Positions 10,301 through 63,197 of a stretch of DNA of 64,000 nucleotides are shown piece after piece. The notes under the pieces were generated by a model, which saw only the letters and a list, made by a program, of their open reading frames with translations, did no database searches and was not told the DNA's origin. The position numbers and the translations under genes were made by a program. Within the stretch, counting starts at the first letter, position 1. Every line of letters starts with the position of its first letter. Origin of the DNA: a virus; IMG/VR virus record IMGVR_UViG_3300020204_000005, one strand, 5' to 3'.

Positions 10301-10716
10301 GAGATGTATTATATAAAGGAAGAATCAACCCAATTGCAACTTTCTCTGACGTAGGTACTGTAATTTGGGGTAATAAAACTTTACAAATTAGAGAATCTGC
10401 ACTTGACAGAATCAATGTTAGAAGATTATTATTACAAGCTCGTAAATTAATATCTGCGGTTTCTGTAAGATTATTGTTTGAACAAAACGATGAGAAAGTA
10501 AGACAAGATTTCTTAGATGCGGTTAACCCTATATTAGATGCAATCAGAAGAGACCGAGGTTTATACGATTTCCGTGTAAATGTTTCTTCAGACCCTGCAG
10601 ATTTAGATAGAAACCAATTAACAGGTAAGATTTATATCAAACCTACTAAATCGTTAGAATTCATAGACATTACATTCTACATTACTCCAACAGGGGCATC
10701 GTTTGATAATATCTAA
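7387..10716 (+). CDS. Contractile tail sheath protein (gp18-like), enlarged to 1109 aa by insertions
   Basis: N-terminal FVSPGVYTSEVDLS and C-terminal PWFAAAGYTRG, RINPI, WGNKTL, RINVRRLL and IYIKPTKSLEFIDITF are sheath signatures. Confidence 0.96.
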   Translation: MASNNKVFVSPGVYTSEVDLSFVAQSVGVTTLGIVGETLKGPAFEPIFIRNFDEFTTFFGGVSPEKFINTQIPKYEGAYIAKSYLQQSNQLFVTRVLGLSGYDAGPSWTISTKANVDPSTVGFYCEDPVIENCEPKCNDYLTIDYSIDFTGCTNSVDSIKFINPSQIPDEIAEKMNLPYEKFDGSTSTIYGDMTSQIIDILTDNTLETSSIYYYGAISGETYDTLSPVFTAETNVFGVDNVSSSLINFSASVNDPWYYATFDNIGNALYSGYSFWSIVTDLALIPVTTTTTLTPSTTTTTTNPCVTPIPTSTTTTTTAKPVNCYTGKLIGRLYIYSGTAYTDYDDLVIATLRSRGLATYGTDDGAVYEVSGLTDVEMVCGNEYSGVTKNPYSTFGLNVTNKNGEKFFFETSFSNSDTKYLTKVFGSSNFAKPKDVVPLFVEERFQALLNYAWRKGYIRGLNCELTALPNARQGNDPTSIAWYLEKYQSPMSPWVVSELRGNKVYKLFKFTTIADGNEANIEVKISIANISFSNGTFDVIVRDFFDSDAAPSVIEKFTNCSMDPGQNNFIAKKIGTVDGEYALNSKYIMVEINEDAPVDALPCGFEGYQFREYAGVRPPFPIYKTKYDFPGEVVYNPPFGLSSGADDIVRSAGDNIRRTYLGISDTVGFDVDFYSYKGKQLPLDICTDVTGDDWFYKSRGFHMDINASGITIGNGFITSGTPAFFVGSAPFTTDPEDSSNPYFRLFARKFSLLCSGGFDGWDIYRESRTNGDKFALGQPGYRKGSCPSFKYPSATGWGAFKQITVGDNTQDWANTDYYAYLLGQRSFANPEAVNINVFVTPGIDYVNHSNLVEDAIDMVENDRADSVYICTTPDYNMFVPSTGDQLDFIYPQEAVDNLEEAGLDSNYTATYYPWVLTRDTVNNTQIYIPPTAEVTRNLALTDNIAFPWFAAAGYTRGIVNAIKARKKLTQEDRDVLYKGRINPIATFSDVGTVIWGNKTLQIRESALDRINVRRLLLQARKLISAVSVRLLFEQNDEKVRQDFLDAVNPILDAIRRDRGLYDFRVNVSSDPADLDRNQLTGKIYIKPTKSLEFIDITFYITPTGASFDNI

Positions 10717-15214: not shown

Positions 15215-18200
15215 ATGTCTGACAGTACTTTATCATTCTCATCATCATCTTCTTTTAGGGATGTATTAATGGCAAGAAATCTTCCACCTTACGATGTCCC
15301 AGGTGTTTACACACCACCATCGGGGCCTCTTAATTACGAAGTTGTTCAGACTGTTTCTAATGTCATCGATTCTCCTGATGAATTAATTGCTAACGACCCA
15401 TTTGCTCAACAATTATACCCATTAAATGAATATGGTCCTGAAGGAGGTTATAATTTAAATATAACATATAATGGTCCACCATTACCTGTAGATTCTAATA
15501 AAGGAGAATACGACCCAACAGACACTGTATTAGATTTGGTTAATGAATTTTATATTGACGCGGCATACATTGAAAATAAGTTTGGACCTGAAGGAGGGTT
15601 TAAAGACATGGTTGTTATTGACAATATTCAAAACAATAACAAAATATATCTACCTTATTGGAACCCACCAATCTTCACACCATCTGTATATACACCATAC
15701 GAGATTTTAATTAATAATAATCCCGCAGGATTGTCTCAAGACTCGTTTATCGCTAAGTTAGGAGCTCAACAATTAAGAGCTTTATTCCAAGAAAGAGTTG
15801 CCGCTGAATTATTTCAGAATACAGTTGGTTTAGTTAATTTAGAATCATTATCAGACCCATTTGAAGCGAGTCTTATTATTACAGGTCAAGAACCTTTGAT
15901 TTATAGAAATTGGAGAATTACGGTTGCGGAAAACCCAATAGTTGCGGCCGTAGATTTTGCCACAAGATTAACAGGTGCTTATTGGCCTGTATCACCAATA
16001 CCTGGTGATTATTTTGAAGAGAACGAACCTAATGCGGGCGCATCATCCCAAATATCAGGTGCTTTAAATGTTGTTAACCAATTAACAGGGGGTTTTTTAG
16101 GACCTATCTTAAACAAGACAAGAAACCCTTCCGAAATATTCTTAGCTAATACAGGTAACGGTCAAAGGTCAGCGTTATTTGCCAACATAAATTATAATAG
16201 ATATAAACCCGACTATAAGAAAAATTTTGGAGGACTTCTTGGTGTTGCACAAGCTTTAGTTAATTTAGCGGTTAATTTAATTGACCCTAATAACGGAACT
16301 TTAGTTGGAGGATATTATGTTGGTAGTAGAAATGCCGAACCATCAACGATTACGTCACCACCAAATCAGGTACCTGTTAACCCGTTTGGTAAACAAGAAC
16401 AAGCTCCTGTATATGGACCTTCAGAACTTGGTATCTTATATGAAGGTAATGAAAATAAAATAAATTTTGGTTTAGCTGGTAAATCATCATCTGATGGTGG
16501 TGGTATTGACGGACAATTTGTTTGGACCTCACCTAAATATAAAGGTGACGCGGGATATAAAGCAACTGTTGGTGGAGGCACAGGAAGTTTAGATGAGGAA
16601 TTTAATCAAATTGCGTCTCAATATAGTAGAGGAGAATCTACAAATATAACATTTAAACAAAGTTCAATTCTAGACCAAACCCAAAGACTTGTTGATTCGG
16701 CAGATAATGTTTCGGGGATTAACCGATTAAAACATGTCGGTAACGCAATTAACCAAGTTAGTAAAGTTTTCAATGACGGATATAAGGAAATGACCAAAGG
16801 TTCTCAAGTTGTAAGTTATAAAGACAATACAACGGGAGAACAAGTTGGTACTGAATATTGTAGAGTATTTACAAAAGATACACCATACTACACTTACGCC
16901 GATTTACAAAAAACTGATGGTATTACAACTTCAGGTAGAAGATTTACTAATTCTGTTTTTGATAATACGTACAATTTAAATATTGCACCACTTAAAAACC
17001 CTGGCTCTACGAATATACAACCAAACGCTAAGGGGGATTTGGTAGCTAAAAAATATATGTTCTCAATTGAAAACTTGGCATGGAGAACATCAAGTAGACC
17101 TGGTTTTACTTATGATGAACTTCCTGTTTGTGAAAAAGGACCTAATGGTGGTAGAGTTATGTGGTTTCCACCTTATAATTTAAGTTTTAGTGACTCAAGT
17201 TCACCAAACTTTACACCTACAAATATTATGGGTAGACCTGAACCAATTTATACATATAATAACACTAGCCGAAGCGGTACGTTAAGTTGGAAGATAATTG
17301 TAGACCACCCATCAATAATGAACGTTTTAGTTGATAAACAATTAAAAGGACAAAACTCCGAAAGAGTAAATTCGATAATAGATTCGTTCTTTGCGGGTTG
17401 TGTTAAATATGACATTTATGAATTAGCTAAGAAGTTTAACACTATCCCAACAAAGGATTTATTTACGTACCAAGAAATTTTAAATAACCCAAGATTAACC
17501 CCTGAAGAATTGGCGGGTATTAATAAAGAAATACCTAAAGAAAATACCGCAGATGGAGGAGCGAATTCTACACCTACAGGTAACCAAAATACTAATACTG
17601 ATGTATCATCTACCCCTGACACTTCAGGAAAAGATTTTGAAGGTAAGTACCAAGATTTAGCGTTTTATTTCCATAATGATAGACCCGACCCCAACTCTAG
17701 TAATACCGTCGCTAGTAAACCATTTAATGTTTGGTACGAATCTTACACTACCACAGACTTTATTCAAAAGTATGTTAACAATGCCGATGCAATATTTAAA
17801 TCCGATTCAAAAAGTAGAAACGTTAAACAATTTTTTGATACGGTAATCATCCCAAATTTTAACGCAATTGCAAAAAATGAAAAAAACTTTATTGTTGAAG
17901 CTTATAATTTAATTAAAGAAAAGAAAGCAAAAATTACTGTTGAAATGGTTGGCTCCGCTTCAGCACCTGCAACTAAAGATTATAATGTGAATTTGTCTAA
18001 ACGAAGAAACGATTCCGTTATTAAATTTTTAAAGGCAACAACTATTGGAGAAGCAAATTTATCTAAATATATTGATGATGGTAGTTTAAAATTCACATTA
18101 TTGAGTGAAGGTGAAACAATTGTTATACCTAAAGCACCTGATGACTCACCTGCTAAAGGACCTGGATTTGATGTAAATTGTACTACAGATATAAAGGATA

Positions 18201-20320
18201 AAAACGGGGCGGTAACAACACTTTCTCAAATATTCTCTGTTGACGCCATGGCTTGTAGACGAGTTAAAATTGGTAAAATAAAAGTAGATATTACCCCTGT
18301 GCCCGCAACAACAACTACCTCAACCGCCGCACCACCACCACCTGTAGTTGAACAACCAAAAACTGAAAACATACCTGTTGTAAAACCAAAACCTACAGTT
18401 GAGATAGTTAAAAAACTTAAAGAGGGAATCGCCAAAAAAATATTAAGAAACTTATTAACTGAATGTGATTACTTTGAATTAATTAAAGAAGAAAACCCGA
18501 TGGTTTATAACACATTCAAAGAAAAGATTAAATACTTTAATCCTACTTTCCACTCAATAACACCTGAAGGATTGAACGCTCGTTTAACATTCTTAAATCA
18601 ATGTGTTAGACCTGGAGAAACAATCCCAACGATTGGTGCTGATGGTAAACCAAAATATAATGACGCAGTTAATACGTCATTCGGAGCTCCACCTGTATTA
18701 GTATTAAGAATAGGTGATTTCTACCACACTAAAATAATACCTACAGGATTACAGTTCCAATATGAACCAATTACCTTTGACATGAATCCTGAAGGTATCG
18801 GTATCCAACCAATGATGGCCAACGTAACATTGAGTTTTAATATCATCGGAGGAATGGGTCTTGCAAAACCTGTAGAACAATTACAAAACGCACTTTCATT
18901 TAACTATTATGCGAATACTGAAATATACGATGAAAGAGCAGTTGCAACTGAAGATACATCAGCATTAGATAAAGAAGTTGTCGATGCGATATTGGCTTCA
19001 GAAGTCCCTGCAACAGTTAATAATGTTGACACACAACAAACAAATAATGGAGGTTCAACAATCGGCACAATTATAACCAACATCCCCGTCCAAGGTGGCC
19101 AGGAAGGTGAAATTAGTTATGCTGATATTATGGATAAATTATTAACCGAAACAAAAAATTATTTTGAAACTGTGGTTAATAAATTAGAAAGTACTAATCT
19201 ACAATACTCATATCCTGTAGTTAGTATGTTAAGTAAAGACCCTTTATATTATGATGGTTATATATTTTTAGGTGACCCAACAGTTAATGACCCAGGACCT
19301 AACGGTAATAAAAAAACTGTCGAAATTTTTGGTAAATCTAACAATGTTGAGGACTTAATTAATAAAGAATTTAAACTTTGTATTGAGGATATTGATAACG
19401 ACTTTAACCCTATTATTGATAAACTTCTAAAAAAATATGGTTTTGCTCAGTCACCTGAAAAACTAAACGGAGTTAAGAATAATATGAAAGAATATATTTC
19501 TAACTTAGAAAAGACATTCACAAATGGAGTATCAACTATCATACAAGATTTAACATTATTCCAACAGAACTATGTACAGTTAATTAGAAAAGTAAATTTA
19601 GTTACAAGTAAAACTGATGGTAAAATTTTAGATACTAATTTACCTAGAGTTTATAGTTTATATAATGCTCCTGACCAAACTGGTAAAATAGATGAAAAAA
19701 CCGTAACTGTACTTGAAGAATTATCTTACGATTATGGTAGATTGGAAACCGCTATGGGTTTATTCATACCATTATTAAAAGATAAAGATAAAGGTTTTAG
19801 AATAGCGTTTGATGATAAAGAATATGTTGAGACTGGTAATTTTAGATTATTAAATCAAGGGGATTTTGAGGGAGGTAATACCCAATCTACATTTGCGAAT
19901 CAAAATTTCTTCTTAATTATGTGTAGAATATTAACTGATAAAAATAAAAAAGATGAATTTATTAATTACGTTATTAAAGGTGATATATTGAATATTAAAG
20001 ACCCTGTAAATTTAAAAAATAAATTTGAAAATATTGTAGATGACTTAGAAAAAATATATAAAAAAGAGTTAAAAGAAGAAGAAAAAATATATGATAAGTT
20101 AAAGAAAAATTCTACTTACAAAGATTTAACAGAAGGTATAAATGAAGTTATGTACACACCTAAAAAAACAAGAAAATGTAGTTATACTACAGTACCCAAC
20201 CAAAATACCGAAACTGTTAAGTTCCAAACTACAGAAATTAGTAATTTATATAAATCGGTAAATACCCCACCAGATGATAATAAAACTTACATAGGAAAAG
20301 TTAAATTTAGTAAAACATAA
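15215..20320 (+). CDS. Large baseplate/tube-initiator protein with an inserted OmpA-like domain
   Basis: The tube-initiator-type motifs FPPYNLSFSD...GRPEPIYTYNNTSRSGTLSW and PPVLVLRIGDFYHTKII...NVTLSF flank an OmpA-like segment (FYFHND...GSAS...YNVNLSKRR). Confidence 0.65.
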   Translation: MSDSTLSFSSSSSFRDVLMARNLPPYDVPGVYTPPSGPLNYEVVQTVSNVIDSPDELIANDPFAQQLYPLNEYGPEGGYNLNITYNGPPLPVDSNKGEYDPTDTVLDLVNEFYIDAAYIENKFGPEGGFKDMVVIDNIQNNNKIYLPYWNPPIFTPSVYTPYEILINNNPAGLSQDSFIAKLGAQQLRALFQERVAAELFQNTVGLVNLESLSDPFEASLIITGQEPLIYRNWRITVAENPIVAAVDFATRLTGAYWPVSPIPGDYFEENEPNAGASSQISGALNVVNQLTGGFLGPILNKTRNPSEIFLANTGNGQRSALFANINYNRYKPDYKKNFGGLLGVAQALVNLAVNLIDPNNGTLVGGYYVGSRNAEPSTITSPPNQVPVNPFGKQEQAPVYGPSELGILYEGNENKINFGLAGKSSSDGGGIDGQFVWTSPKYKGDAGYKATVGGGTGSLDEEFNQIASQYSRGESTNITFKQSSILDQTQRLVDSADNVSGINRLKHVGNAINQVSKVFNDGYKEMTKGSQVVSYKDNTTGEQVGTEYCRVFTKDTPYYTYADLQKTDGITTSGRRFTNSVFDNTYNLNIAPLKNPGSTNIQPNAKGDLVAKKYMFSIENLAWRTSSRPGFTYDELPVCEKGPNGGRVMWFPPYNLSFSDSSSPNFTPTNIMGRPEPIYTYNNTSRSGTLSWKIIVDHPSIMNVLVDKQLKGQNSERVNSIIDSFFAGCVKYDIYELAKKFNTIPTKDLFTYQEILNNPRLTPEELAGINKEIPKENTADGGANSTPTGNQNTNTDVSSTPDTSGKDFEGKYQDLAFYFHNDRPDPNSSNTVASKPFNVWYESYTTTDFIQKYVNNADAIFKSDSKSRNVKQFFDTVIIPNFNAIAKNEKNFIVEAYNLIKEKKAKITVEMVGSASAPATKDYNVNLSKRRNDSVIKFLKATTIGEANLSKYIDDGSLKFTLLSEGETIVIPKAPDDSPAKGPGFDVNCTTDIKDKNGAVTTLSQIFSVDAMACRRVKIGKIKVDITPVPATTTTSTAAPPPPVVEQPKTENIPVVKPKPTVEIVKKLKEGIAKKILRNLLTECDYFELIKEENPMVYNTFKEKIKYFNPTFHSITPEGLNARLTFLNQCVRPGETIPTIGADGKPKYNDAVNTSFGAPPVLVLRIGDFYHTKIIPTGLQFQYEPITFDMNPEGIGIQPMMANVTLSFNIIGGMGLAKPVEQLQNALSFNYYANTEIYDERAVATEDTSALDKEVVDAILASEVPATVNNVDTQQTNNGGSTIGTIITNIPVQGGQEGEISYADIMDKLLTETKNYFETVVNKLESTNLQYSYPVVSMLSKDPLYYDGYIFLGDPTVNDPGPNGNKKTVEIFGKSNNVEDLINKEFKLCIEDIDNDFNPIIDKLLKKYGFAQSPEKLNGVKNNMKEYISNLEKTFTNGVSTIIQDLTLFQQNYVQLIRKVNLVTSKTDGKILDTNLPRVYSLYNAPDQTGKIDEKTVTVLEELSYDYGRLETAMGLFIPLLKDKDKGFRIAFDDKEYVETGNFRLLNQGDFEGGNTQSTFANQNFFLIMCRILTDKNKKDEFINYVIKGDILNIKDPVNLKNKFENIVDDLEKIYKKELKEEEKIYDKLKKNSTYKDLTEGINEVMYTPKKTRKCSYTTVPNQNTETVKFQTTEISNLYKSVNTPPDDNKTYIGKVKFSKT

Positions 20321-52000: not shown

Positions 52001-52069
52001 TCAGTTTCTGAACAAGGTATCAATTTTAAATTGAATATAGGGATAAACTTTGAAATATTATGTAATTAA
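49049..52069 (+). CDS. Baseplate wedge subunit, gp7 / P2 gpI-like, extended
   Basis: The pattern LLKNLAQTLGW...FLFKSKGTRKSIEILLRLIG (KGT-x-x-SI) is characteristic of this family. Confidence 0.65.
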   Translation: MAIKKYTCPPQSATGAGTFSDDLVGLQLVAGGGLTQGNFEFVTSTSEKTNRNFITGVFSDPINLESIGINSIEQSKTILEKNFKVYPNFDLTQVNNFTLYGSMVKRMSASATKIISFFPAAIESTFMGINYITGVTANNIVYSELNDSTTFDLDIARLRNPFDVDFTNNSTRNLELKEIQVSPLRDMKIQYAKYSLFFNDGEYKVINIVPTDSLSNGILTLTVSGDPFSGETVVFDNLVIRPNDLEVNSVFKEVFDEVEQFLLNRNVSPKYTSTFNIPREAEDGSYYIESLNLTWPLYGTWNIDILTKAFESYIISLNDVSESFDGYKTNLISRFLTTGAFKEFDTIGQKMEKVLQIYGRSFDETKKYITALSFMTSVNYNVGNDIPSQLLKNLAQTLGWTTNMSPISNEELLSSVFGKTKQDKSNFTGISQPQTPDELNYQYFRNLILNSAFLFKSKGTRKSIEILLRLIGAPEALIEFNEYVYLADQKINLSQFNEQYIQISGGTYIEFTPILDPTDIYSIFGNQYTGFTTSATIKDVNVSLDDYPMDEFGYPYSPPDTEDYFFQKGSGWFEQTPQHRAPEEVNLTNSVFVGNNPNYQTMLLPYSYGQEYLNRFRKFPFMNLGYQLTPTIDNNKSWVDNEVGIRTNLDGNFNARYFVEDDRLVLNVKNVDLFLNPAQGLVYDVWVMSREFNYPIPNQGLNYIPPTYCDPKPYSPYPGRGGVDWTEIVPLPKRKTFFEFAQTFWYNMINVRNRQYATNGKTGGYPTLDSIYWKYLESQQTINIPNDNFTYKTMMDYVNGLGDYWIRLVEQMIPATTIWNTGVKLENSIFHRQKFVWRRQEGCQLIPIPCKPCSLINNIFTYDCPIESVECAIYPWVNNPQIQTLNAVLGNVLNSYLTTNGYTLNDCDFNGMTTKWFVDIRVDDTVVVSYPFFSGVGYSSPSYSSPTVDMWDDALSNALDSLKDYGFDYYLTNEDTVVVYNQVCSVSEQGINFKLNIGINFEILCN

Positions 52070-54996
52070 TGTGTGATTTAAATGTATCTATTGCGGGTAT
52101 AACAGGTGATTGTTTTAATACTGATTCAGGTGCTTTTACAATATCTATTAACGGTACGGCACCTGACTATACAGTTGATTGGATAAACCCTCCTTATGGA
52201 ACAATTCCATTAGGACCTGGAGTTGTTGGATACACTATAGATAATTTATCTGCAGGTACCTATACATTTGACATAATAGACAGTTGTTTACCCGATAATA
52301 ATTACCAAACAATTAATGTTAATGTTTCATCAGGGACTTGTGTGAGTTTAACAGGTGTTGAGAACACAAGTTGTGGTTTAAATAATGGTAGTTTAACCGC
52401 AACAACAACAACACAGTATAACACCGCAAAATTCTATCTTTATGATACGACTATTGGATATATAACATCCGCAACATCATTAAATAATTTTTATGTGTTT
52501 GACAATTTAGGTGCAGGAACATATTATGTTGTTGGAGATGACGGGGGCGGTTGTACAGGTAAATCAGAAACTTGTATAATAATGAATTCAAATGAACTTA
52601 GTGTTGGTTTATTCATAGTTAACGCTTCATCTTGTGCGCCAAATACAGGAGCTATTTATGTTACAGGAGTTACAGGTACACCACCATATACTTATTCATG
52701 GAGCCCTGGAGGGCAAACTACCAATTCAATAACAGGACTAACAGTAGGTAATTACATTTTAACTGTTACAGACTCTGAAGGATGTATACAAAGTTCGGGA
52801 ATTACAATTACCGCAAAACCACCTGTTGGTTTGGTCGATATTTCATTTGTTAACCCTACTTGTTTTGCTTCTGATGGTGAAGTTAGTTTAATAGTTTCAG
52901 GAGGAACCGCACCATTCCAATATGTAGGGTCGAATGGACACATTGATACTACATTTAGTAACACTAATACATTTTATAATATTCCTGCGGGACCATTTAC
53001 AGTAGTAGTTAAAGATGCGGGTAATTGTAGTTTTACTGCAACGACTACATTGTTAACACCTGGAGGGTTAAATGTCACATCAGTTAATGTAACCAATTCA
53101 ACATGCAGTGGGAATGGAGGTAAAATTGATGTTAATATTTTTGGAGGTTCGCCACCATATACATATACTTTAACGGACTCATTAAGTAATAATACAGTGG
53201 TAAACGGGAATTTTACTAGTTGGTCTTTTAATGGTCTTTCTTCAGGTAGTTATATTTTAACAATTTCAGATTCAGGACCTTGCGATTTTGTGGGTACATA
53301 TATAGTTAATAATAATGAATTATTTGAATTAACAGTTGAAACAACAGGTACGACATGTAATCAAGAAGATGGTTCGGTATTACTATCAATTACCCCAGGA
53401 GGTACCCCACCATTCCACTATGAAATTGATGGTTATTCAGACTTCTCAAATAATTTAGAATTTTTATATGAAAATCTACCAAGTGGTAACTATGTTGCAA
53501 CAGTTACCGATGCTAATTATTGCCAACAAGAATTACCATTTACAATTGTAGGCTCAAGTACCGTAGATTTTCTTTTAATTGGTACTGATTCATTAAATGG
53601 TAGTAATGGAACCATAAGCGCATTAATTACAAATGGTACACCACCATTTACATTAACTTGGAGTCCAAATGTTAACGGTCAAACGGGTACTGAAATCGAC
53701 ACTCTTAGTGCTGGAACATATACTTTAACTGTTGTTGATAATAATGGATGTAGTAAAACAAGAACAATTACAATAAATGGGTTTAATAAATTATCTTCAT
53801 ATCAAGTTTATAATATTTGTGATGAAGACTTTTTTAACACAGGTCAAACAGGTAGGAAAGGACCTCAAGAAATGTTAACTGAAGGATTCCATGATTTAAC
53901 AAGTGGAGACACTAACTGTATTTTAAATAGAGCTATTTTCACAGTAAAAACAATTATTAATGGGGATTTAAAAGAACAATCATTTTATACAGGGGCAACA
54001 CTATCAGATTTCCCATCAGATAATGAATTTTATGATGTTGTGGAAAGTTTACTTTTAACTTATAATATCATTGGTGAAATTGTGATTGACGCGGTTAAAA
54101 ATACATTAACAATTGAAAGCGTATGTGACGTAACAATCGAAACTTTAGACGCAACTGTTAAAGTTGAGTTGGACATATCTTATGATATTAGTTGTGAAAC
54201 TTGTGAAACTCAAACACCAACACCAACACCTACAGCAACGCCTACACCTACTCCGACGCCAACAATATCAGTCTCAGCATGTACTGTAATTTACGTTGTT
54301 GAAAATAATGATATATACGCATATGACCTATCATCAAATGTTAGTACATTGTTACCGGTCCCGTCAAACGTTAGTAACGTTGATATTGCACACACGGATA
54401 GTAAATTATGGGTAAACAATAATTTTATGGTAAGGGAATGGGATATAACATTAAGCCCATTTAGTGCAACATTCAATAGAGATATAACATTCCCATTTAC
54501 AGTAGGTAATGGTTTAGGGGTCATCGATAATCAAACACTTATAACAACAAATGAATCATCCCCTCAATCAGTTTATGAGATGGATATTACAACCACAACT
54601 GCGGTTGATACATTTAAATTTAACTTACCACCAACACATTTAGTTGCCGGAGATATAATGTTAACAACAACCAATAAACTTTTAGTTACCACCGCGGAAA
54701 GTCCAAACATATATCTATTACAATATGATTATTTAACGGGTGTTTTAGAGTTAACAATAACTCTAAACCCAACTGTTGGTGGTGGTCCTTGGGGTATCTT
54801 CGAGGAATTTGGTAATATTTATATCACCGATTCATTGGGGCGTATCTATAATGTGGATACGTCAAGTCCGTATAACATTACTTTAATTAACTCCACAGGT
54901 AACTTAATATATGGAGCATCTCAATCACCAGTATGTTTAACGACTGATTTTACAACTCCAACCCCAACCCCAAGTATTACTCCTACCTTAACTTAA
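52069..54996 (+). CDS. SprB-repeat fibre/adhesin-like protein with a PT linker and a C-terminal beta-propeller-like domain
   Basis: About six units of the type C..G.I....(G)GT(A/P)P(Y/F).Y.W...G.Y.(L/V).V.D..GC, a TPTPTPTATPTPTPTPT linker, and a repetitive beta-rich C-terminal domain. Confidence 0.75.
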   Translation: MCDLNVSIAGITGDCFNTDSGAFTISINGTAPDYTVDWINPPYGTIPLGPGVVGYTIDNLSAGTYTFDIIDSCLPDNNYQTINVNVSSGTCVSLTGVENTSCGLNNGSLTATTTTQYNTAKFYLYDTTIGYITSATSLNNFYVFDNLGAGTYYVVGDDGGGCTGKSETCIIMNSNELSVGLFIVNASSCAPNTGAIYVTGVTGTPPYTYSWSPGGQTTNSITGLTVGNYILTVTDSEGCIQSSGITITAKPPVGLVDISFVNPTCFASDGEVSLIVSGGTAPFQYVGSNGHIDTTFSNTNTFYNIPAGPFTVVVKDAGNCSFTATTTLLTPGGLNVTSVNVTNSTCSGNGGKIDVNIFGGSPPYTYTLTDSLSNNTVVNGNFTSWSFNGLSSGSYILTISDSGPCDFVGTYIVNNNELFELTVETTGTTCNQEDGSVLLSITPGGTPPFHYEIDGYSDFSNNLEFLYENLPSGNYVATVTDANYCQQELPFTIVGSSTVDFLLIGTDSLNGSNGTISALITNGTPPFTLTWSPNVNGQTGTEIDTLSAGTYTLTVVDNNGCSKTRTITINGFNKLSSYQVYNICDEDFFNTGQTGRKGPQEMLTEGFHDLTSGDTNCILNRAIFTVKTIINGDLKEQSFYTGATLSDFPSDNEFYDVVESLLLTYNIIGEIVIDAVKNTLTIESVCDVTIETLDATVKVELDISYDISCETCETQTPTPTPTATPTPTPTPTISVSACTVIYVVENNDIYAYDLSSNVSTLLPVPSNVSNVDIAHTDSKLWVNNNFMVREWDITLSPFSATFNRDITFPFTVGNGLGVIDNQTLITTNESSPQSVYEMDITTTTAVDTFKFNLPPTHLVAGDIMLTTTNKLLVTTAESPNIYLLQYDYLTGVLELTITLNPTVGGGPWGIFEEFGNIYITDSLGRIYNVDTSSPYNITLINSTGNLIYGASQSPVCLTTDFTTPTPTPSITPTLT

Positions 54997-55070
54997 ATGT
55001 ATGGTGTTTCGGTAATCAAATATTAATCAGTAATACTACTAAATTTTTAGAATTAACTAATAGTTAAAAA

Positions 55071-55098
55071 AAAATATCGTCTAAAAAGACGATATTTT
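55071..55098. terminator. Bidirectional terminator between convergent operons
   Basis: Perfect 12-bp stem AAAATATCGTCT-AAAA-AGACGATATTTT with A/T tracts on both sides. Confidence 0.8.
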
Positions 55099-55122
55099 AA
55101 ATAATCGGTATTTTGAACGATA

Positions 55123-55734
55123 TTACCAAATTTTTTCCTGATTCATATAACCTAATACACAACAGTACGCATCGGTCATATCAAAATTCTCTTTTTTTAA
55201 CGTATTATTTTTAGTATAGACCCAAGTAATTTGAGGTTCTCGTTCTGCAACCAAATCCCATATAATTTGTTTTTTGTCACAATCTTTTGGGTACCCACCG
55301 AACAGTACAAATTTACCTTTATCATTTTGTTGAATTAAATTAGGAAAGGCAGATTTTCTAGAATTATAAGTCGAGACGTACTCAGGAATAATACCCAAAA
55401 TATCGTATATTTCTTTAGTTATTAGGGTATTAAACCTCATTAAAGTCTGAATGGTATAAACATTATTACTATTCATTAAAGGTTCCTCAATCACAACTTT
55501 AGTTATACCTAAATTTTTATATTGAAGTAATTTACTTCTAAAAATTTCACTTTTTAGAATTAATTCTTTAATTTTATTATCTTGTTTAGGTTTAGGTATA
55601 GGTGATACATGGGTTAATTCCAACAACTCTCTTGACTCGATGTCAAATAATGCCCAACCAATGGTTTTGGTCGACACGTCTAACCCCAATACTTTTGGAG
55701 TATTCTCGATAGATTTTTTCATATTAAATGTCAA
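55123..55734 (-). CDS. ruvC: RuvC-like Holliday junction resolvase
   Basis: VLGLDVSTKTIGWA (catalytic D), VVIEEP (catalytic E) and DMTDAY (two catalytic D). Confidence 0.82.
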   Translation of the reverse strand: MTFNMKKSIENTPKVLGLDVSTKTIGWALFDIESRELLELTHVSPIPKPKQDNKIKELILKSEIFRSKLLQYKNLGITKVVIEEPLMNSNNVYTIQTLMRFNTLITKEIYDILGIIPEYVSTYNSRKSAFPNLIQQNDKGKFVLFGGYPKDCDKKQIIWDLVAEREPQITWVYTKNNTLKKENFDMTDAYCCVLGYMNQEKIW

Positions 55735-58252
55735 ATTTAATCAAAAACTGCTGAATACCTTGTCTTAAAACAGGGGACTGCATTTTTGATATAATCATAA
55801 GATTTTTGTTAGAATCGTAAAGTCCAATTTCAGTTAAATACGAAGGTTTACCTTGTACCCATGTTGGATTTGATGTTGCTTGAAATTCAGCCTGACTCAA
55901 ATTTATCTTATATCTCATCTCATAAATTGTTGCTTGAATGTCAGTTTCTAATGAACCGTAGAAATAATATTCATCACCAAAATTTAATGATGTACCTGTA
56001 TAACCAACGGGTGTTAATGGTATATAATTATTTAAGTTGTATGTTGGAGCGTCCTCATATAATTCATTTGTAATTACAAATGTCGTACTTGTTAACGATT
56101 CTTCAGTGATATAACCATTAACCATCATACTTGAGATTTGGTCTGTAAAATCAATTATCTTCCACTCAGAAGAGTTTGGTCTTCCTGTACCATCTACTTT
56201 TTGACAAATAATTTCAAATTTATCGGCGTAGAATCCTGATACAACATCACATCCCACAGGACAAGTTGTTGTTGTCGTAGTAAATGGGTCAAAAGTAGTC
56301 GTTGTCGTAGTAAATGGGTCAAACGTGGTAGTGGTTGTTGTTGGACTATATTCAGGTCTCAAACAAGGGAACTCAGCACCAAATCTAACCGCCACATTTT
56401 GAGATGGTTGTGGGTTACAATCAATATTAGGGCCTTGCATTACTGTGTAATAGTTACAATGTAATGAGTTTGTAAATACTGAAGTATTACTTAGTCTATA
56501 AGTAACGTGCATATATTGTGTATTACCCGTTAAAACACCTGTTAAAGAATTACTATCATTACCACAAGTATTAGGTGTGACTAATGAAGTCTTAGGAGCG
56601 GGTAACGTCCAATTCCTATTTGATTTATAAGACATTGCCGCGATAACTTCCTCATCGTCAATAATGACAAGTTTAGAATCAGGAAATACTTTACCAATTC
56701 TATTAGGTAAGTTATTTGTATTTCTATGAGTATCCCATAAATGATAGTATCTAATACCTGGGGAATTCATATCACTATTTTTAGTTGATTGTAAGTACTC
56801 AACTTTAAATAAATCTAAATCCTCAAATTCAGGTGGGTCAACCCAAAAAGTTTCACCAAAACAACATTCAGGATTTTTATGCCACATCAACCAAGGAATG
56901 TGTAATTTAAAGTTTCTTGCTTGACCCGTAGTATCTGAAGGGTTTGACACATCAAACGGCTCAAACGCAAATTTTTCACCATAGAAGAAATCTATAGTTT
57001 GATTTGTATAATGAATAACCGCAATTGCTTTTTGTTCTTCAGGAGTTACGATTACTTTATCACCTAATGAATCATAATGGTACACTGAACTAGTGTTAGT
57101 TTGACCACTACTTGAAGCATAACCAAAGTATTCTTTAGTACCAAGATATTGTCTTGAACCAAAGTTGGTATAATCTTTACTAATCGATGAGAAAAGACCT
57201 GCAGGGTTTTCAGACCAAGGAATATTCATATTCCAAACTTTAACATCAAACTCATCAGTATAACAAACAGATTCATAGTTAATAACATTATCCCTCCAAT
57301 GAGGACGAGGAGTTATCGAATCATACATGGTTTGCATATTTGGTGGATATACAATCATTCTTGCATAACAATCAGAAGATAAATTTGAAAAATCAGGTGT
57401 TGGTCTATCTAATGTAAATTCACCCAAACATATTGATGTTATTTTATAAGTTAACATTGAATAACAACTACTAATAGGTGTTAAACAATCTGGCGGTGGT
57501 GGTGGGGGACAAGCTCTACTTGGGGTAGGTGTTGGACAGAATGTTGCAGATGGAGTTGGGGTAGGTGTAGGTGTCTCACAAGTAAATGACGCTGATGGGG
57601 TAGGTGATGGTGTTGGAGTTAGAGTATTATTACTTGCAGTTATACTTGGAGTAACCGTCATTGTTGGAGTTGGAGATGGTGTTGGGACATTTGAACATGT
57701 ATTATTATATAAACCATTACCATCATAAAATATCGTAACAATGTCACCTACCGCAGGTTCTCTGAATGAAACACCATTAGAAACTAAAATTGGTGTTATA
57801 ACATTGGTACCGTTTAAACTATTCATTCTTACTGAATAGTTTGCGTTGATAGCATATAAATCGTTAGTTATTGCACTCCATGAAGTAGTTTCGGCAGTTG
57901 TATTACCTGTGAAGAAACCTCTCATGGCGGCTCTGTTATAAACAGGACTAACTATTGAATCCATAAAAGGAACACCATATGTGTTGCCTGTAGAACCATC
58001 TACATAATATGGGTATTTAATATTTTCTTTATTTGATTGAGGAGACCCGCTAGAATTTTGAGCATTGAAGTTTGGCTCAAGAATCGTGGTATCAAATTGA
58101 TTATAGGACACTGGTAATGTGTTATACGAAACTTCACTATCACCTATTTGAAAATAAGAAATATTAAAATTACCTTGTGATAATTTTTGTCTTCCTGTAT
58201 CAGTTAATCTTGTATTAATTAACCCCGATGTATTTTTAATAATGTATCCCAT
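55724..58252 (-). CDS. Tail collar / fibre-attachment-type structural protein with PT and poly-Thr repeats
   Basis: N-terminal RLTDTGRQKLSQGNFNISYFQIGDSE and C-terminal LTEIGLYDSNKNLMIISKMQSPV (collar-like). Several PT and T-rich tracts lie between them. Confidence 0.6.
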   Translation of the reverse strand: MGYIIKNTSGLINTRLTDTGRQKLSQGNFNISYFQIGDSEVSYNTLPVSYNQFDTTILEPNFNAQNSSGSPQSNKENIKYPYYVDGSTGNTYGVPFMDSIVSPVYNRAAMRGFFTGNTTAETTSWSAITNDLYAINANYSVRMNSLNGTNVITPILVSNGVSFREPAVGDIVTIFYDGNGLYNNTCSNVPTPSPTPTMTVTPSITASNNTLTPTPSPTPSASFTCETPTPTPTPSATFCPTPTPSRACPPPPPPDCLTPISSCYSMLTYKITSICLGEFTLDRPTPDFSNLSSDCYARMIVYPPNMQTMYDSITPRPHWRDNVINYESVCYTDEFDVKVWNMNIPWSENPAGLFSSISKDYTNFGSRQYLGTKEYFGYASSSGQTNTSSVYHYDSLGDKVIVTPEEQKAIAVIHYTNQTIDFFYGEKFAFEPFDVSNPSDTTGQARNFKLHIPWLMWHKNPECCFGETFWVDPPEFEDLDLFKVEYLQSTKNSDMNSPGIRYYHLWDTHRNTNNLPNRIGKVFPDSKLVIIDDEEVIAAMSYKSNRNWTLPAPKTSLVTPNTCGNDSNSLTGVLTGNTQYMHVTYRLSNTSVFTNSLHCNYYTVMQGPNIDCNPQPSQNVAVRFGAEFPCLRPEYSPTTTTTTFDPFTTTTTTFDPFTTTTTTCPVGCDVVSGFYADKFEIICQKVDGTGRPNSSEWKIIDFTDQISSMMVNGYITEESLTSTTFVITNELYEDAPTYNLNNYIPLTPVGYTGTSLNFGDEYYFYGSLETDIQATIYEMRYKINLSQAEFQATSNPTWVQGKPSYLTEIGLYDSNKNLMIISKMQSPVLRQGIQQFLIKFDI
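56271..56330 (-). repeat. 30-bp tandem duplication encoding (TTTFDPFTTT)x2
   Basis: GTTGTCGTAGTAAATGGGTCAAA (23 nt) is identical at 56271 and 56301. Confidence 0.9.
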
Positions 58253-58278
58253 TGATTATAAATATTCTTATTTAATTT

Positions 58279-59709
58279 TTATGACGTTATAATTGAACAA
58301 CAACCACAACCGTAAATTTTTAAGTTTGATAAATTATATGTTTCATCACTTGTACCAACATAACAATTAACAAATTCATTTCTATTTACACTTGTTATTG
58401 TTCTAATTTTAAAATCACTTGTGTTATCTATAGTAATTGAATCCCACACTTCATTTAATGAAGTTAACCAAACATTTTCCGATTGACAACCTGCAACTGT
58501 ATTAATAATACTATCATCGTTTGTTGAAGATGAGGACGGTGGAATTATATTGATACCATCAATAGTTAATGAGGTCTTGGTATTAAAAGTGGCGGAATCT
58601 TCATTAGGTGAAGATTTAGATAAGTTTAAATGACTCAATTTAAAGTTAATACTTGTACCATCAGGTAAATCAGGTGTTATTGATAATGTTGTCGTGTACT
58701 CTTTAGTTAATAATGTACTATTTGCTTGTAGTGTTTTAGGTAGGGTAACTAATTTAACGTTATAAGTGGTTGGAGGTGATGGAGGATTTAACGTTATATT
58801 ATTACTAACAGTAAATCCTTCAGAATCACTAACAACAACATTGTAGGAACCTGAACATAAATTACTGAACATTGGTATATTTCTATATGTCAAACCACCA
58901 TTAATCGAATATGAATATGGAGGGTAACCACCACTTGATTTAATTGTTAAACCACCATCACATCCACATATTGTTTGGTTTTTAGTAATTAAAACATTCA
59001 TAGGTTGGACCGAATCTTCTGATTCTGCCGAGAATCTACCATTTGGAATCCTTACTATTTGATTACAGTTACCTTCATAAACTATTACAGTACCTGTAGC
59101 GCCAATAATAAACCAACTACCATAAATTGGTGGGTAAGTAGGATTTGAATTAAATATTGTATAAGTTGTTGGAGTTGAAGCCGATAACTTCCATTGTAAA
59201 AGAGTTGAGTCCCAATATATTACTTGTGTTGAGTCATTAGAAATCCAAGAAGGTTTAGAATTAAATAAACCGTTAGGTGAAAAATTAGTTTGAGTTTCTA
59301 CATAAGAACCTTGTTTAAGTATATTTGTTGTCATACAAAGTTGATACTCAATATAAGGAGTTGTAGGTGTTGGGGTCGGTGTGGGGGAAGGTGTTGGTGT
59401 TGAACCTGTTAAAATACATTTTGTATTTGCGGTAAAATCGCCATAAGAATCAATAACTGTTGCTTCATAAACACCTGCAGTTAAATTGTATATAACGGGT
59501 GAAATGTTACCGTTATTCCAGCTTATATAATATGGAGGAGTTCCTCCCGTTATTGTTAAATAAATCGAACCATCGGATGATGATGGAGAAGGATGAGTAA
59601 GATTACACTCAACACCCATAGGGAATAAAGTGATTGGTTCACATTCATTTGTGAACTCAGGTATTATTGGTTTAGGTGTAGGAGTTGGTCCTAAAAAAGG
59701 ATAAGTCAT
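58279..59709 (-). CDS. Second SprB-repeat, PT-linker fibre-like protein
   Basis: TGGTPPYYISW...AGVYEATVIDSYG and SGGYPPYSYSINGG...SGSYNVVVSDSEG, plus PTPTPKP and TPTPSPTPTPTPTTP tracts. Confidence 0.7.
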   Translation of the reverse strand: MTYPFLGPTPTPKPIIPEFTNECEPITLFPMGVECNLTHPSPSSSDGSIYLTITGGTPPYYISWNNGNISPVIYNLTAGVYEATVIDSYGDFTANTKCILTGSTPTPSPTPTPTPTTPYIEYQLCMTTNILKQGSYVETQTNFSPNGLFNSKPSWISNDSTQVIYWDSTLLQWKLSASTPTTYTIFNSNPTYPPIYGSWFIIGATGTVIVYEGNCNQIVRIPNGRFSAESEDSVQPMNVLITKNQTICGCDGGLTIKSSGGYPPYSYSINGGLTYRNIPMFSNLCSGSYNVVVSDSEGFTVSNNITLNPPSPPTTYNVKLVTLPKTLQANSTLLTKEYTTTLSITPDLPDGTSINFKLSHLNLSKSSPNEDSATFNTKTSLTIDGINIIPPSSSSTNDDSIINTVAGCQSENVWLTSLNEVWDSITIDNTSDFKIRTITSVNRNEFVNCYVGTSDETYNLSNLKIYGCGCCSIITS

Positions 59710-59748
59710 GAACTTAAATATTTTCTTTTAGTTTTTTAATAAATACAT

Positions 59749-60729
59749 TTATTCCTGAAATTTTATAACCCTTTTCATAATATCAATATATTTTCTTGTG
59801 GCACTTGTGGACTCAATGTACTCAAAAAAGTCAATGTTTGATTTTAACATTTCCAATGGATTAATGTTAATGTAATCACCTTTGAAAAATTTTTTATCTT
59901 TTAGGTCGTTGGTCACACCTGCCATATGTAATATTGGGTGTTTTTCATAAGTACTGATTGAGTCAGTTGCCCAAGAAAAACTTAAATCACTAACTACTTT
60001 AGTTTCTAAACCAAAATACCAAAGGTTCCATAACAGAGACCACATCTCCGCAGTCCAAAATTGTATTTCACCTGGGCTAATTGGATACCTTTTTTGAAAA
60101 TCTAACATTTGGTCATATAGAGGAGCACAATCGTAGTATATTTTAAACCATAGTTCCCATGGAGTGTTTTTAATAATGTATTGACCACCACCTGAATTAG
60201 GTTGGTTCTTTTTTACCTCATCAATAGTAATACCTATTACATCAACCATTTCTTGTAAAAGTTGATTTTCTCCACAATCAGGATGTTGATTTTCGTATCT
60301 ATCGCAACAACTAACAATATAATCATAACCTATATAACCAATGGTATCTGAAAGATATATTGTGTCATCACTAAGTAATTTATCAAAATCAGGAAGTTCT
60401 CTAAAAATAATGTCAGCATCGTGTAAGAAAAAACACCTACCAAATTCAGGGTTTTGTTCCAACCATTTATAAATTAAAAAAGGTTTTATACTTGGGATAT
60501 AATGTTTTCTTTGTCTATCATCTAAATAATGGTGGATATTAATACCCAATTCTTTGAGTTTTAAAGAATCTTCAGTAGGTTCTGTATTACCTTGAACCAT
60601 ACCAAATATCACATGAATTTTATTTGGGTCAATACCTAAATCTATAAAGTTTTGAGTATAAACTCTAACTTGCCAATGAAAATATGGAACGTCAGGTTGT
60701 GCCGTTACAAATACTAAGTTTTCTTTCAT
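59749..60729 (-). CDS. GT-A fold glycosyltransferase resembling plant peptidyl-serine galactosyltransferase / hydroxyproline arabinosyltransferase (GT96/GT95-like)
   Basis: YIPSIKPFLIYKWL, FFLHDADIIFRELP (DxD), GGGQYII, WTAEMWS and a late ILHMAG. Confidence 0.75.
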   Translation of the reverse strand: MKENLVFVTAQPDVPYFHWQVRVYTQNFIDLGIDPNKIHVIFGMVQGNTEPTEDSLKLKELGINIHHYLDDRQRKHYIPSIKPFLIYKWLEQNPEFGRCFFLHDADIIFRELPDFDKLLSDDTIYLSDTIGYIGYDYIVSCCDRYENQHPDCGENQLLQEMVDVIGITIDEVKKNQPNSGGGQYIIKNTPWELWFKIYYDCAPLYDQMLDFQKRYPISPGEIQFWTAEMWSLLWNLWYFGLETKVVSDLSFSWATDSISTYEKHPILHMAGVTNDLKDKKFFKGDYININPLEMLKSNIDFFEYIESTSATRKYIDIMKRVIKFQE

Positions 60730-60801
60730 AACACTATTTGAAATTAAATATAGAAAACAATAATTTGTAATAAATGCTATTTTGGGTAATATTTATTGTA
60801 T

Positions 60802-60978
60802 ATGAAGTTACTTAAAACAATATCAAAATTAGTCGTAGAATCACAACGTGCTTATGATGAAGCATGTGAAAAAGGTGTTAGTGAAAAAGAATTGGATAGA
60901 CTTGAAAAAAATTTAAGAGAGACTAGACTATTAATGAAACTATACGATAATGTGGGTAAAACTAACCCTAAAGACTAA
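60802..60978 (+). CDS. Small helical hypothetical protein (58 aa; start moved to ATG 60802)
   Basis: MKLLKTISKLVVESQRAYDEACEKG... with TATTTAT at 60790-60796 just upstream. Confidence 0.55.
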   Translation: MKLLKTISKLVVESQRAYDEACEKGVSEKELDRLEKNLRETRLLMKLYDNVGKTNPKD

Positions 60979-61052
60979 TCAAATCCCCTTTAACAATAAA
61001 CCACATTTAGTATTTGTCCTAATGTCGTAAGGACCTGTACCTGTCGCACCAG

Positions 61053-61322
61053 TTAAGTAATAAGTGTTGGTGTTGGAGTTATAGGAAGTGAGTTACATGG
61101 TACAGTTTTAAAAGTAATACATCCTTCTGAAAGAGAAACCAATTTGATACCTACTTCAGGAATATTATTAAAAATTGAAGGTAATGGTGAAATAACAACA
61201 GGAGGCCCCACACTTGTATTTATAGTTGCGACTAATACACATTGTCCACCATATGAATTACAAACATAAACTTCATATGGAAAATTAGAACCTATTATAG
61301 ATGTAATATCGATACCATTCAT
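61053..61322 (-). CDS. Small Cys-containing beta protein, paralogue of 62979-63197, ending in a PT linker (probably truncated)
   Basis: VYVCNSYGGQCVLVATI aligns with VYLCDNPITMCVYIDTI, and IKLVSLSEGC with LKIVDDNNC. Confidence 0.6.
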   Translation of the reverse strand: MNGIDITSIIGSNFPYEVYVCNSYGGQCVLVATINTSVGPPVVISPLPSIFNNIPEVGIKLVSLSEGCITFKTVPCNSLPITPTPTLIT

Positions 61323-61328
61323 AAATTA

Positions 61329-62978
61329 CTAATTATATGATAAACAAGTTTCACAATCAGTATATAATGTTGGAGTCACAACACTTGAAAAATAGTTACC
61401 TGTGTAGTTTATAATATTTGAACCTGGTGGAAGTGAAGGATAGTTCGGGTAAACCCCATAAAAAGTCCAACAGTTACCATCATTACCATAGAACGTTTTA
61501 GATGAATCTAATGAAGGTCCTGGAAAATTTTGAATTAAGTATTGATTTATTGTTTTTTTTGTATTTTTACCAAGTTCTTTAGAGGATGAAAACTCAACTG
61601 TAGTTTTTTTACAATTAAGGTAAACGTAAAATTGTTGAGGTAATGAAGGAGTTGGTGTCAAAGTAGGAGTTGGTGTTAAAGTAGGAGTTGGTGTCATACT
61701 AGGTGTTGGACTCGGTTCAGGATAACATTCAACACACTGACCTAAATTGAAGTAACCCACAGGACCTTCAGTTAAAATAATTTCAGTCACACCAATACTT
61801 TCAGGATTAACACCTACATATGAAATACATTTAGAAACACCATCGACAGTTGCTTTGAATATCATATATTCCTCTAAAGTATCACCTGATGGTGTAGGTA
61901 CTGACATAGTGGTGTAATACATCATACCATTAATACAATCTTGGAATTGTTTACTAACAGGACAAGAAAGGTCACCCTCAATTGTTGTGAAAAAAACATC
62001 ACCTGTTATGTTACAAGGTCTATTTATTATTCTTGTTGGTGTTGGAGTGGGTGTTGGTGTTGGTGTTGAGGTTGGAGTAATGCCAACAATAACCGCATCT
62101 ACATCTATGTTAGCACATGTTAAGTTAGTTGCGGTAGGGGTAGGGGTAGGTGTTAAAGTTGACGTTGGAGTTGGAGTAGGACTAATAGAAACATCACAAT
62201 CAAAAATTGCGGTAAAATCAAAAACCTCACAATAAGTTGTTGTTGTAGTAGTTGGAGGGCAAACACCTGAAGAGAAAAATTCTTCACATAAATCAGGACA
62301 TTCTGAAAAACAAGGTGACTTACCTGATAGGAGACACATACCACCTAAAGATGTTGATAAACACCATTGTTTGTTACCTATTGAATAGTAAATATAATAG
62401 TTGTTTGAACTTCCCGTCCAATATAGTTGTGAATTATAAGTACCCGCACTGTAGTAAGTACTGTCAAAAATTGTATCGGTTCCACTTATACAATATATTT
62501 CCTCACACACAGGAGGGACTGAACAAGGGAATGAAGTAATACAAGAGTTACAGTCAAGATATGAAGTACCCAACCTAAAATTATCTGAGGAAAAAATTGT
62601 GTAATAAGGTAAAGCTGATGTATAACCTGAATTAACAATTCGATAACAACCATTTAATTCATTGTTAGGGTTTGAAGATGATATTATATCTGTAAAATAA
62701 AGAGTATCGCCTAACCCAAAATTTACTGAATCCCTTCGAGAAATTGCAATGGCGAATGTTTCGCCACTACAACAACCCGAAAATTCTAAAACAGGAATTT
62801 CTTTTTCTATTAAGGTTACTACAATATCTACTGATGGTGATGTTATAGTTCCCGCCGCGTTAATGTAATAATATAATGAAGGTTCTAGGTCAAAAACTTT
62901 AACCGAAGATAAAATATCTGTGAATGTAAAACCAACATAAGTTGATGGTCCCGTATTTTGAATTTGATATATCGGCAT
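61329..62978 (-). CDS. Cys-rich modular fibre-like protein with several PT and poly-Thr linkers
   Basis: About 27 Cys by manual count, recurring (Y/L)xxCxxC motifs and four PT/T tracts. Confidence 0.7.
   Translation of the reverse strand: MPIYQIQNTGPSTYVGFTFTDILSSVKVFDLEPSLYYYINAAGTITSPSVDIVVTLIEKEIPVLEFSGCCSGETFAIAISRRDSVNFGLGDTLYFTDIISSSNPNNELNGCYRIVNSGYTSALPYYTIFSSDNFRLGTSYLDCNSCITSFPCSVPPVCEEIYCISGTDTIFDSTYYSAGTYNSQLYWTGSSNNYYIYYSIGNKQWCLSTSLGGMCLLSGKSPCFSECPDLCEEFFSSGVCPPTTTTTTYCEVFDFTAIFDCDVSISPTPTPTSTLTPTPTPTATNLTCANIDVDAVIVGITPTSTPTPTPTPTPTRIINRPCNITGDVFFTTIEGDLSCPVSKQFQDCINGMMYYTTMSVPTPSGDTLEEYMIFKATVDGVSKCISYVGVNPESIGVTEIILTEGPVGYFNLGQCVECYPEPSPTPSMTPTPTLTPTPTLTPTPSLPQQFYVYLNCKKTTVEFSSSKELGKNTKKTINQYLIQNFPGPSLDSSKTFYGNDGNCWTFYGVYPNYPSLPPGSNIINYTGNYFSSVVTPTLYTDCETCLSYN
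61648..61701 (-). repeat. 18-bp tandem repeat (about 3 copies) encoding (L/M)TPTPT units
   Basis: GGAGTTGGTGTYAAAGTA units at 61648, 61666 and 61684, the third degenerate. Confidence 0.85.
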
Positions 62979-63197
62979 TTATAATAAACTTAAATTTTTA
63001 ATTATTTCACAATTATTATCGTCAACTATTTTTAAATTGTAACTAGTTTGACCGTCAACGGATGGTGGTACAAAAAAATCATATGGAAAAGAATTTATCG
63101 TATCGATATAAACACACATAGTAATTGGGTTATCACATAGATAAACATTACACGGGGTTACCCCTGTCACATCATTTATTGTTATTTGTGTTGGCAT
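62979..63197 (-). CDS. Small Cys-containing beta protein (paralogue of 61053-61322)
   Basis: 72 aa. It is the first gene of the leftward operon, with TATTTAT upstream at 63208-63214 on the minus strand. Confidence 0.65.
   Translation of the reverse strand: MPTQITINDVTGVTPCNVYLCDNPITMCVYIDTINSFPYDFFVPPSVDGQTSYNLKIVDDNNCEIIKNLSLL

Follow-up and report, generated by a model that had tools for sequence, protein, structure and literature searches.

A soluble GT-A glycosyltransferase of PHROG 4417 as a candidate O-glycosyltransferase for the threonine-rich tracts of phage proteins

The viral DNA stretch analysed here, 64,000 nucleotides of IMG/VR virus record IMGVR_UViG_3300020204_000005 (the window), encodes a glycosyltransferase (GT) of the GT-A fold, P0001, among genes whose products carry threonine-rich tracts. 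Sequence comparison and genomic context indicate that P0001 is probably a cytoplasmic O-glycosyltransferase for the Thr-rich tracts of the phage's own proteins. The enzyme would be produced in the infected cell as a soluble, metal-dependent (DxD) GT-A glycosyltransferase, moving a sugar from a nucleotide sugar to threonine, and possibly serine, within the Thr or Thr/Pro tracts of phage proteins before or during assembly. Its first candidate acceptors are the neighbour-encoded proteins of 476, 842, 549 and 975 residues, while other tract-bearing proteins, such as the tail sheath, may serve as well. Taken by its parts, it is almost certain that P0001 is catalytically active as a GT-A glycosyltransferase and very probable that its targets are Thr-rich tracts in phage proteins; we infer both the role of the tracts as acceptors and a linkage to the threonine oxygen. 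The gene lies as follows:

59749-60729, minus strand: P0001, candidate O-glycosyltransferase for Thr-rich tracts, 326 residues, GT-A, PHROG 4417, catalytic motif D104-A-D106

The open reading frame (ORF) 59749-60729 is translated on the minus strand without a stop into 326 residues. An ordered set of motifs claimed for it by an earlier reading of the sequence alone (the sequence-only reading) is present in full, namely Y-I-P-S-I-KP-F-L-I-Y-K-WL, H-DAD-I-I-F-R-E-L-P, GGGQYII and W-T-AEMW. Across an alignment of 59 relatives with 30-54% identity (A1), residues W19, Y77, D106, Y132, G181, M229, W230, F251, H268, G271 and K283 do not vary and D104 hardly does, and the motifs therefore represent a conserved family core rather than a chance resemblance. 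PHROG 4417, a family annotated as of unknown function, matches residues 7-321 of P0001 on profile positions 3-291 of 293 (E = 1.2e-71), and the PHROG 4417-type family comprises 822 cluster representatives at 50% identity, 299 of them with E < 1e-30. No functional name occurs among the homologue matches listed for P0001, a Pfam search gave zero matches at E up to 10 (including GT8 PF01501, HPAT and PF11397), a sequence search of the PDB returned nothing usable and megablast of the P0001 region against cultured phages found no match. A TAL effector match from a PDB profile search was discarded as a spurious repeat match. P0001 has no hydrophobic membrane segment and starts directly with its first strand; lacking a hydrophobic anchor, it should be cytoplasmic.

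The AlphaFold model of P0001, built with A1 as input, has a mean predicted local distance difference test score (pLDDT) of 97.5. The D104-A-D106 motif comes after strand 99-102, the central strand, as in GT-A enzymes, and the fold together with this placing of the DxD motif makes P0001 a GT-A protein. Foldseek returned GT-A glycosyltransferases only (UGGT, WbbM, XXYLT1, glycogenin and LgtC; lowest E 3e-7). VIA-align Z scores reached 14.9 for glycogenin, 14.4 for Skp1 alpha-galactosyltransferase (alpha-GalT), 14.2 for LgtC, 13.9 for UGGT and 13.2 for GlyE, and WbbM and LARGE1 were also among the top structural matches in a search against representatives. The sequence-only reading had looked to structural matches to set a protein-modifying enzyme apart from one acting on DNA or lipid; the best matches (glycogenin, Skp1 alpha-GalT, UGGT and GlyE) act on proteins or protein-linked glycans, with no DNA or lipid transferase among them. 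These GT8/GT24-type enzymes (the Skp1 enzyme being 6mw8) align over 210-245 residues with Z scores of 13-15, and several of them are cytoplasmic protein-glycosylating enzymes, as proposed for P0001; GlyE is an enzyme of the pneumococcal serine-rich-repeat adhesin pathway. They are, however, only 8-12% identical to P0001, which by sequence is not a GT8 (PF01501) member, so that the likeness to GT8 is structural only.

Association between enzyme and tracts in related genomes had been proposed as a test of the sequence-only reading, and the transferase family does track Thr-rich tracts across unrelated phages. In 80 diverse bacterial-genome loci a Thr-tract gene stands directly upstream of the homologue (position -1) in 36, against a base rate of 1.1%, with secondary peaks at -5/-6 and +5. 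By PHROG search the tagged proteins are major head (PHROG 10, 840) and major tail (PHROG 88, 238, 117, 14018) proteins, and since they fall into different head and tail families the tag has been attached to several unrelated structural proteins. Within one tail-protein family (alignment A3; the broader alignment A2 was too diverse for searching), a poly-Thr tail accompanies the transferase in 15 of 19 loci and is found in 0 of 74 loci that lack the enzyme (Fisher 5e-14). The 74 loci free of the transferase are all viral, while the loci that carry it consist of one viral locus, which is tailed, and 18 genomic ones, of which 14 are tailed; of the four untailed loci with the transferase, three have the tract in another small protein encoded beside it. 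At four Bacillaceae prophage loci (L417, L420, L430, L434) the -1 gene encodes a protein of 113-122 residues whose C-terminal half consists of 50-65 residues of K-P-T-T-T-T-T-type repeats. The N-terminal half of this protein, checked for L417, matches major-tail PHROGs, and in L420, L430 and L434 the canonical tail protein further downstream is untagged.

A sample drawn blind to the enzyme gave a similar picture. Among 118 viral loci chosen solely for an (ACN)8 run, the transferase is found in seven, six of which have an adjoining poly-Thr gene, as against 0 of 117 control loci chosen for a (GAN)8 run (p 0.007). A tree of 101 domains places the window in a well-supported giant-phage clade with adjacent tracts in 9 of 10 members, and a separate Bacillota-phage clade has them in 36 of 37; taking all single-domain forms, 58 of 65 have an adjacent tract gene. 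The combination of a transferase with candidate acceptor tails on major capsid and tail proteins is present in the relatives, and the tracts of the window phage are internal, including that of its sheath.

Homologues of P0001 were found in 77 cultured-phage records. In all five Bacillota phages inspected (phiFL1A, SA2, phiCTP1, iLp84 and VPE25) the C-terminus of the major tail protein is a run of 6 to about 20 threonines and the homologue sits in the head-tail gene module. In Enterococcus phiFL1A and Clostridium phiCTP1 it is the next gene after that for the major tail protein, with one small ORF in between in Staphylococcus SA2; it lies one small gene past the major capsid gene in Lactobacillus iLp84, and in Enterococcus VPE25 is found directly behind the head gene, five genes upstream of the major tail gene. 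The VPE25 major tail protein (L563:9626-10243) carries a C-terminal run of ten threonines, and the head protein is untagged. A search for GT2, GT1 and GT60 genes found none in five phages with the homologue and poly-Thr tails (39-103 kb), with control genomes matched for GT2 and GT1, and by this search the homologue is their sole recognisable phage transferase. Because no GT60, GT2 or GT1 gene accompanies it, the family appears to work without a phage partner at least in these five small phages, from which we infer that the enzyme may start chains unaided.

Plant hydroxyproline arabinosyltransferases (HPAT, GT95) act on peptide acceptors rich in proline and hydroxy-amino acids, and the resemblance to GT95 claimed by the sequence-only reading stands as distant homology at the superfamily level and falls short of membership. 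The catalytic-domain homology is detectable by comparison with bacterial PF23452 members, not with the plant enzymes: hhalign of A1 against a set of 28 proteins (A4), which consists of an Acidimicrobiales PF23452 member (L561:1327-2196, minus strand; 25.7 bits, above the cut-off) and its homologues, most with a PF23452 match and the rest close homologues, gave a probability of 90.9% (E = 1.1e-6) over 261 collinear columns. The two alignments coincide at the N-terminal W-Q, the DxD-x-x-F-R, the W-x-x-[DE]-M, the His and the Lys motifs. P0001 itself does not reach the gathering threshold of HPAT (PF23452), which only 3 of its 59 relatives match, weakly (best E 0.046); in a language-model neighbour search (Atlas), HPAT is carried by 10% of the members of the P0001 neighbour clusters. 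As P0001 is under the Pfam threshold, its family is a distant sister of HPAT/GT95. The two share a GT-A fold with DxD and profile-profile homology across the whole domain, but P0001 lacks the type II membrane anchor of GT95/HPAT enzymes and is soluble, no prolyl hydroxylase is evident, and the likely acceptor is threonine instead of hydroxyproline. The Pfam HPAT model gave nothing in five phage records, and control genomes likewise gave no match.

Other relatives of P0001 occur in protein- or peptide-modification settings. In P0145, P0160 and P0162 a PHROG 4417-type domain is joined to a GT60 (PF11397) domain, and P0162 adds protein O-fucosyltransferase and F5/8 type C domains. Related forms of 1000-1377 residues occur in metagenome-assembled genomes (MAGs) of marine Actinomycetota and Bacteroidota, beside Thr/Ala/Pro-repeat genes in L407 and L410. 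Many bacterial PF23452 proteins (P0332-P0347) are fused to PqqD (PF05402), the leader-peptide-binding domain of pathways for ribosomally synthesised and post-translationally modified peptides (RiPPs), and this fusion implies that these HPAT-family proteins are peptide-directed glycosyltransferases.

Chromosomal Bacteroidota homologues from Chitinophaga, a Bacteroidetes MAG and Pedobacter measure 510-600 residues and consist of the GT followed by an uncharacterised C-terminal domain. Their loci (L438:4403-10824, L443:6311-10578 and L474:6446-10418) hold genes for a C39-peptidase ABC exporter, HlyD, thioredoxin-like and LanC-like proteins and small Cys-rich peptides. The glycocin transferases known so far belong to GT2. 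The Bacteroidota loci look like an undescribed glycocin/RiPP-type cluster, to judge by analogy of gene content. The exporter, HlyD, thioredoxin-like and Cys-rich-peptide genes of this sister clade resemble glycocin systems of the SunS/sublancin type and of enterocin F4-9 (PMC8620827), from which it differs in using a PHROG 4417-type domain with a C-terminal extra domain and in having a LanC-like neighbour; these clusters stand outside the phage system.

Around P0001 itself, Thr/Pro tracts are found in 7 of about 40 window genes, as compared with a frequency of 1.1% among the genes of 117 viral control loci. A tract scan of the translations bears out the tracts that the sequence-only reading had assigned to the 549-, 476-, 842- and 975-residue proteins and to the sheath. 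The sheath is a recognised virion protein, and its poly-Thr insert means that at least one such protein of this phage carries a Thr tract. The tract-bearing genes and possible acceptors of the window are:

58279-59709, minus strand: 476-residue protein, candidate acceptor, directly downstream of the transferase gene, with SprB repeats and a TP linker at residues 101-120
55724-58252, minus strand: 842-residue protein, candidate acceptor, with TP tracts at 190-238 and poly-Thr at 633-665 preceding the C-terminal module
61329-62978, minus strand: 549-residue protein, candidate acceptor, upstream of the transferase gene, with four Thr/Pro tracts
61053-61322, minus strand: 89-residue protein, possible small acceptor, with the C-terminus P-I-T-P-T-P-T-L-I-T
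52069-54996, plus strand: 975-residue protein with SprB repeats, a TP linker at 713-735 and a further TP tract at the C-terminus
7387-10716, plus strand: tail sheath of 1109 residues (PHROG 23), with a poly-Thr insert at residues 285-320
15215-20320, plus strand: 1701-residue protein, with a short Thr/Pro tract at 1027-1042
A protein of 1697 residues has a shorter Thr/Pro tract.

In the family of the 842-residue protein (P0358, P0382, P0384 and P0398) the first three quarters are kept and the last quarter, after the poly-Thr linker, is exchanged; the replacement C-terminal modules include beta-propellers (PF25174, PF21783 and PF10282). Such module swapping in sequence would suit a surface or receptor-binding protein. 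The leftward block is closed by a gene for a RuvC-like Holliday-junction resolvase (55123-55734, minus strand; PHROG 159, E 6e-8), with an 11-base overlap with the end of the 842-residue protein gene. An ORF of 60 codons on the opposite strand (60796-60978, plus strand) takes up most of the 323 bases of intergenic space upstream of the transferase gene; its product looks helical and is rich in charged residues, and the ORF is doubtful as a gene. The 8-mer ATATTTAT occurs at most 80 bases upstream of seven genes, against 0.4 expected, and its sites precede the genes at 7387, 10773, 13235, 15215, 39274, 58252 (minus strand), 59709 (minus strand) and others. TATTTAT, its 7-base core, lies upstream of the sheath, 476-residue and 842-residue protein genes, and at -23 of the transferase gene a variant form, TATATTTA, is found. 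This element, as ATATTTAT or its TATTTAT core, is possibly a late promoter of the phage. No enrichment of TAnnTTTG, the -7 promoter motif of Bacteroidota, is seen in the window (102 observed, 109 expected).

The arrangement of transferase and tract genes is conserved in the giant-phage lineage. The order of the transferase gene, a gene for a protein of about 470 residues and then one of about 840 residues with tracts recurs in 80 related loci (58-92% identity), and tract genes occupy position +1 in 74% and +2 in 73% of these loci, against 0-5% at six or more genes away. Distance and conservation of a GT60 gene were also examined in related genomes. All five large phage genomes (G006-G010, behind L024, L044, L047, L014 and L078; 177-318 kb) carry a GT60 (PF11397) gene of about 415 residues together with a PHROG 4417-type gene, so that both candidate polypeptide transferases are conserved together, and the genome of P0001 also contains a GT60 gene. 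The GT60 polypeptide alpha-GlcNAc-transferases are comparable to P0001 in that they perform mucin-type initiation on Thr-rich proteins, occur in the same lineage and are fused to a P0001-type domain in some proteins, yet they form an unrelated sequence family, whose model (PF11397) P0001 does not match.

The presence of GT60 in the lineage bears directly on the step that P0001 might catalyse, since in this phage it might extend chains and not start them. The GT60 enzyme of the same phage would then add the first sugar to threonine and P0001 a later one, as the GT60 fusions P0145, P0160 and P0162 would lead one to expect of successive steps, and the nearest structural neighbours of P0001 (Skp1 alpha-GalT, XXYLT1, UGGT and GlyE) mostly extend protein-linked glycans. 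Such a division of labour, a serious alternative for this particular phage, is nonetheless the less likely reading, because the five small phages combine a homologue and poly-Thr tails with the lack of any GT60, GT2 or GT1 gene, and because the GT60 gene of the lineage lies 55-85 kb from the P0001-type gene, to which the tract genes are adjacent.

It is much less probable that the substrate is phage DNA or a polymer of the host surface (teichoic acid, O-antigen or capsule) whose modification would serve to exclude superinfection or mask receptors, with the tracts as mere flexible linkers. Phage glycosyltransferases are, according to a review, best known for DNA glucosylation and serotype conversion, Thr/Pro linkers occur widely as unglycosylated spacers and the leftward block contains a DNA enzyme, the RuvC-like resolvase. 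P0001, however, is without a membrane segment, its family is encoded within head-tail modules of lytic and temperate phages, away from integrases, and its presence or absence tracks poly-Thr tails inside a single tail-protein family; furthermore, fusions link the domain to others of protein O-glycosylation, it recurs in peptide-modification contexts, and its fold lists are not led by any DNA or lipid transferase. Least probable of all is a decayed or non-catalytic GT-like protein, for instance a chaperone or lectin for Thr-rich proteins, whose binding role would also fit the tract association, the activity of P0001 being a prediction, but against which stands an active site conserved in DxD, His and Lys, invariant or nearly so in relatives at 30-54% identity and aligned with the corresponding HPAT-family positions.

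Further observations, along with the GT60 gene and the unglycosylated linkers just mentioned, weigh against P0001 as a transferase for the Thr-rich tracts of its own phage. The 549-residue protein has no family and no match in cultured phages, the 842-residue protein has no cultured-phage match either and its AlphaFold model is poor (pLDDT 42, no usable fold), and the 549-, 476- and 842-residue proteins are candidate virion components and putative fibres. Given the RuvC-like resolvase gene in it, the leftward block is not a purely structural operon. About 7 of the 65 single-domain homologues have no nearby Thr-tract gene, the comparative signal is a correlation among loci that are partly kin by descent, and the reading of the family as a whole is based on sequence comparison and predicted fold.

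To our knowledge, virion glycosylation in tailed phages has been experimentally shown only for a few mycobacteriophages, in which immune recognition was altered. Mycobacteriophage virion glycosylation is reportedly treated by Freeman et al. 2023 (Cell Host Microbe 31:1216). According to two reports, mycobacteriophages Che8, Corndog and Myrna encode glycosyltransferases and bear glycans on the C-terminal ends of their capsid and tail-tube subunits (PMC12619734, PMC13313380). The system proposed here, predicted from genes, is similar in that the transferase is phage-encoded and the Bacillota relatives bear poly-Thr tails on the same two proteins, capsid and tail. It differs in its hosts (Bacillota, Bacteroidota and others), in its uncharacterised enzyme family, PHROG 4417, and in its candidate acceptor, a simple poly-Thr or Thr/Pro tag, the tracts of the giant phages being internal linkers of large proteins. 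Literature searches brought to light no account of the PHROG 4417 enzymes, nor, mycobacteriophages aside, of virion proteins with poly-Thr tags. The strategy would therefore be that of the mycobacteriophages, and what appears new is the transferase family, the simplicity of the tag and a much wider host range. Protease resistance, rigid spacers or adhesion as benefits of such glycosylation are speculation.

On a broader view, for and against which the case seems to us evenly balanced, a poly-Thr or Thr/Pro tag and a soluble HPAT-like transferase form a portable two-part module with which phages of several phyla glycosylate their capsids, tails and linker-rich proteins, and which has been acquired by at least four families of major tail proteins and two of major head proteins. 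The same superfamily would also serve the glycocin-like clusters of Bacteroidota and PqqD-guided peptide modification, and the glycosylation of extensins by plant GT95 would be one branch of an old peptide-directed family. The well-studied lytic phage VPE25 offers a ready experimental model for the pair of tag and transferase. If the proposal is true, a large unannotated family (the 822 representatives) would gain a function, the PHROG 4417 gene together with poly-Thr tags would provide a simple predictive signature, and the minimal tag-and-enzyme pair could serve O-glycoprotein production in bacteria. Glycosylated capsids and tails would then be common, in phages of enterococci, staphylococci, lactic acid bacteria, clostridia and Bacteroidota as well as in aquatic giant phages, with relevance to phage therapy (antibody recognition and clearance), dairy phage biology, adsorption and particle stability.

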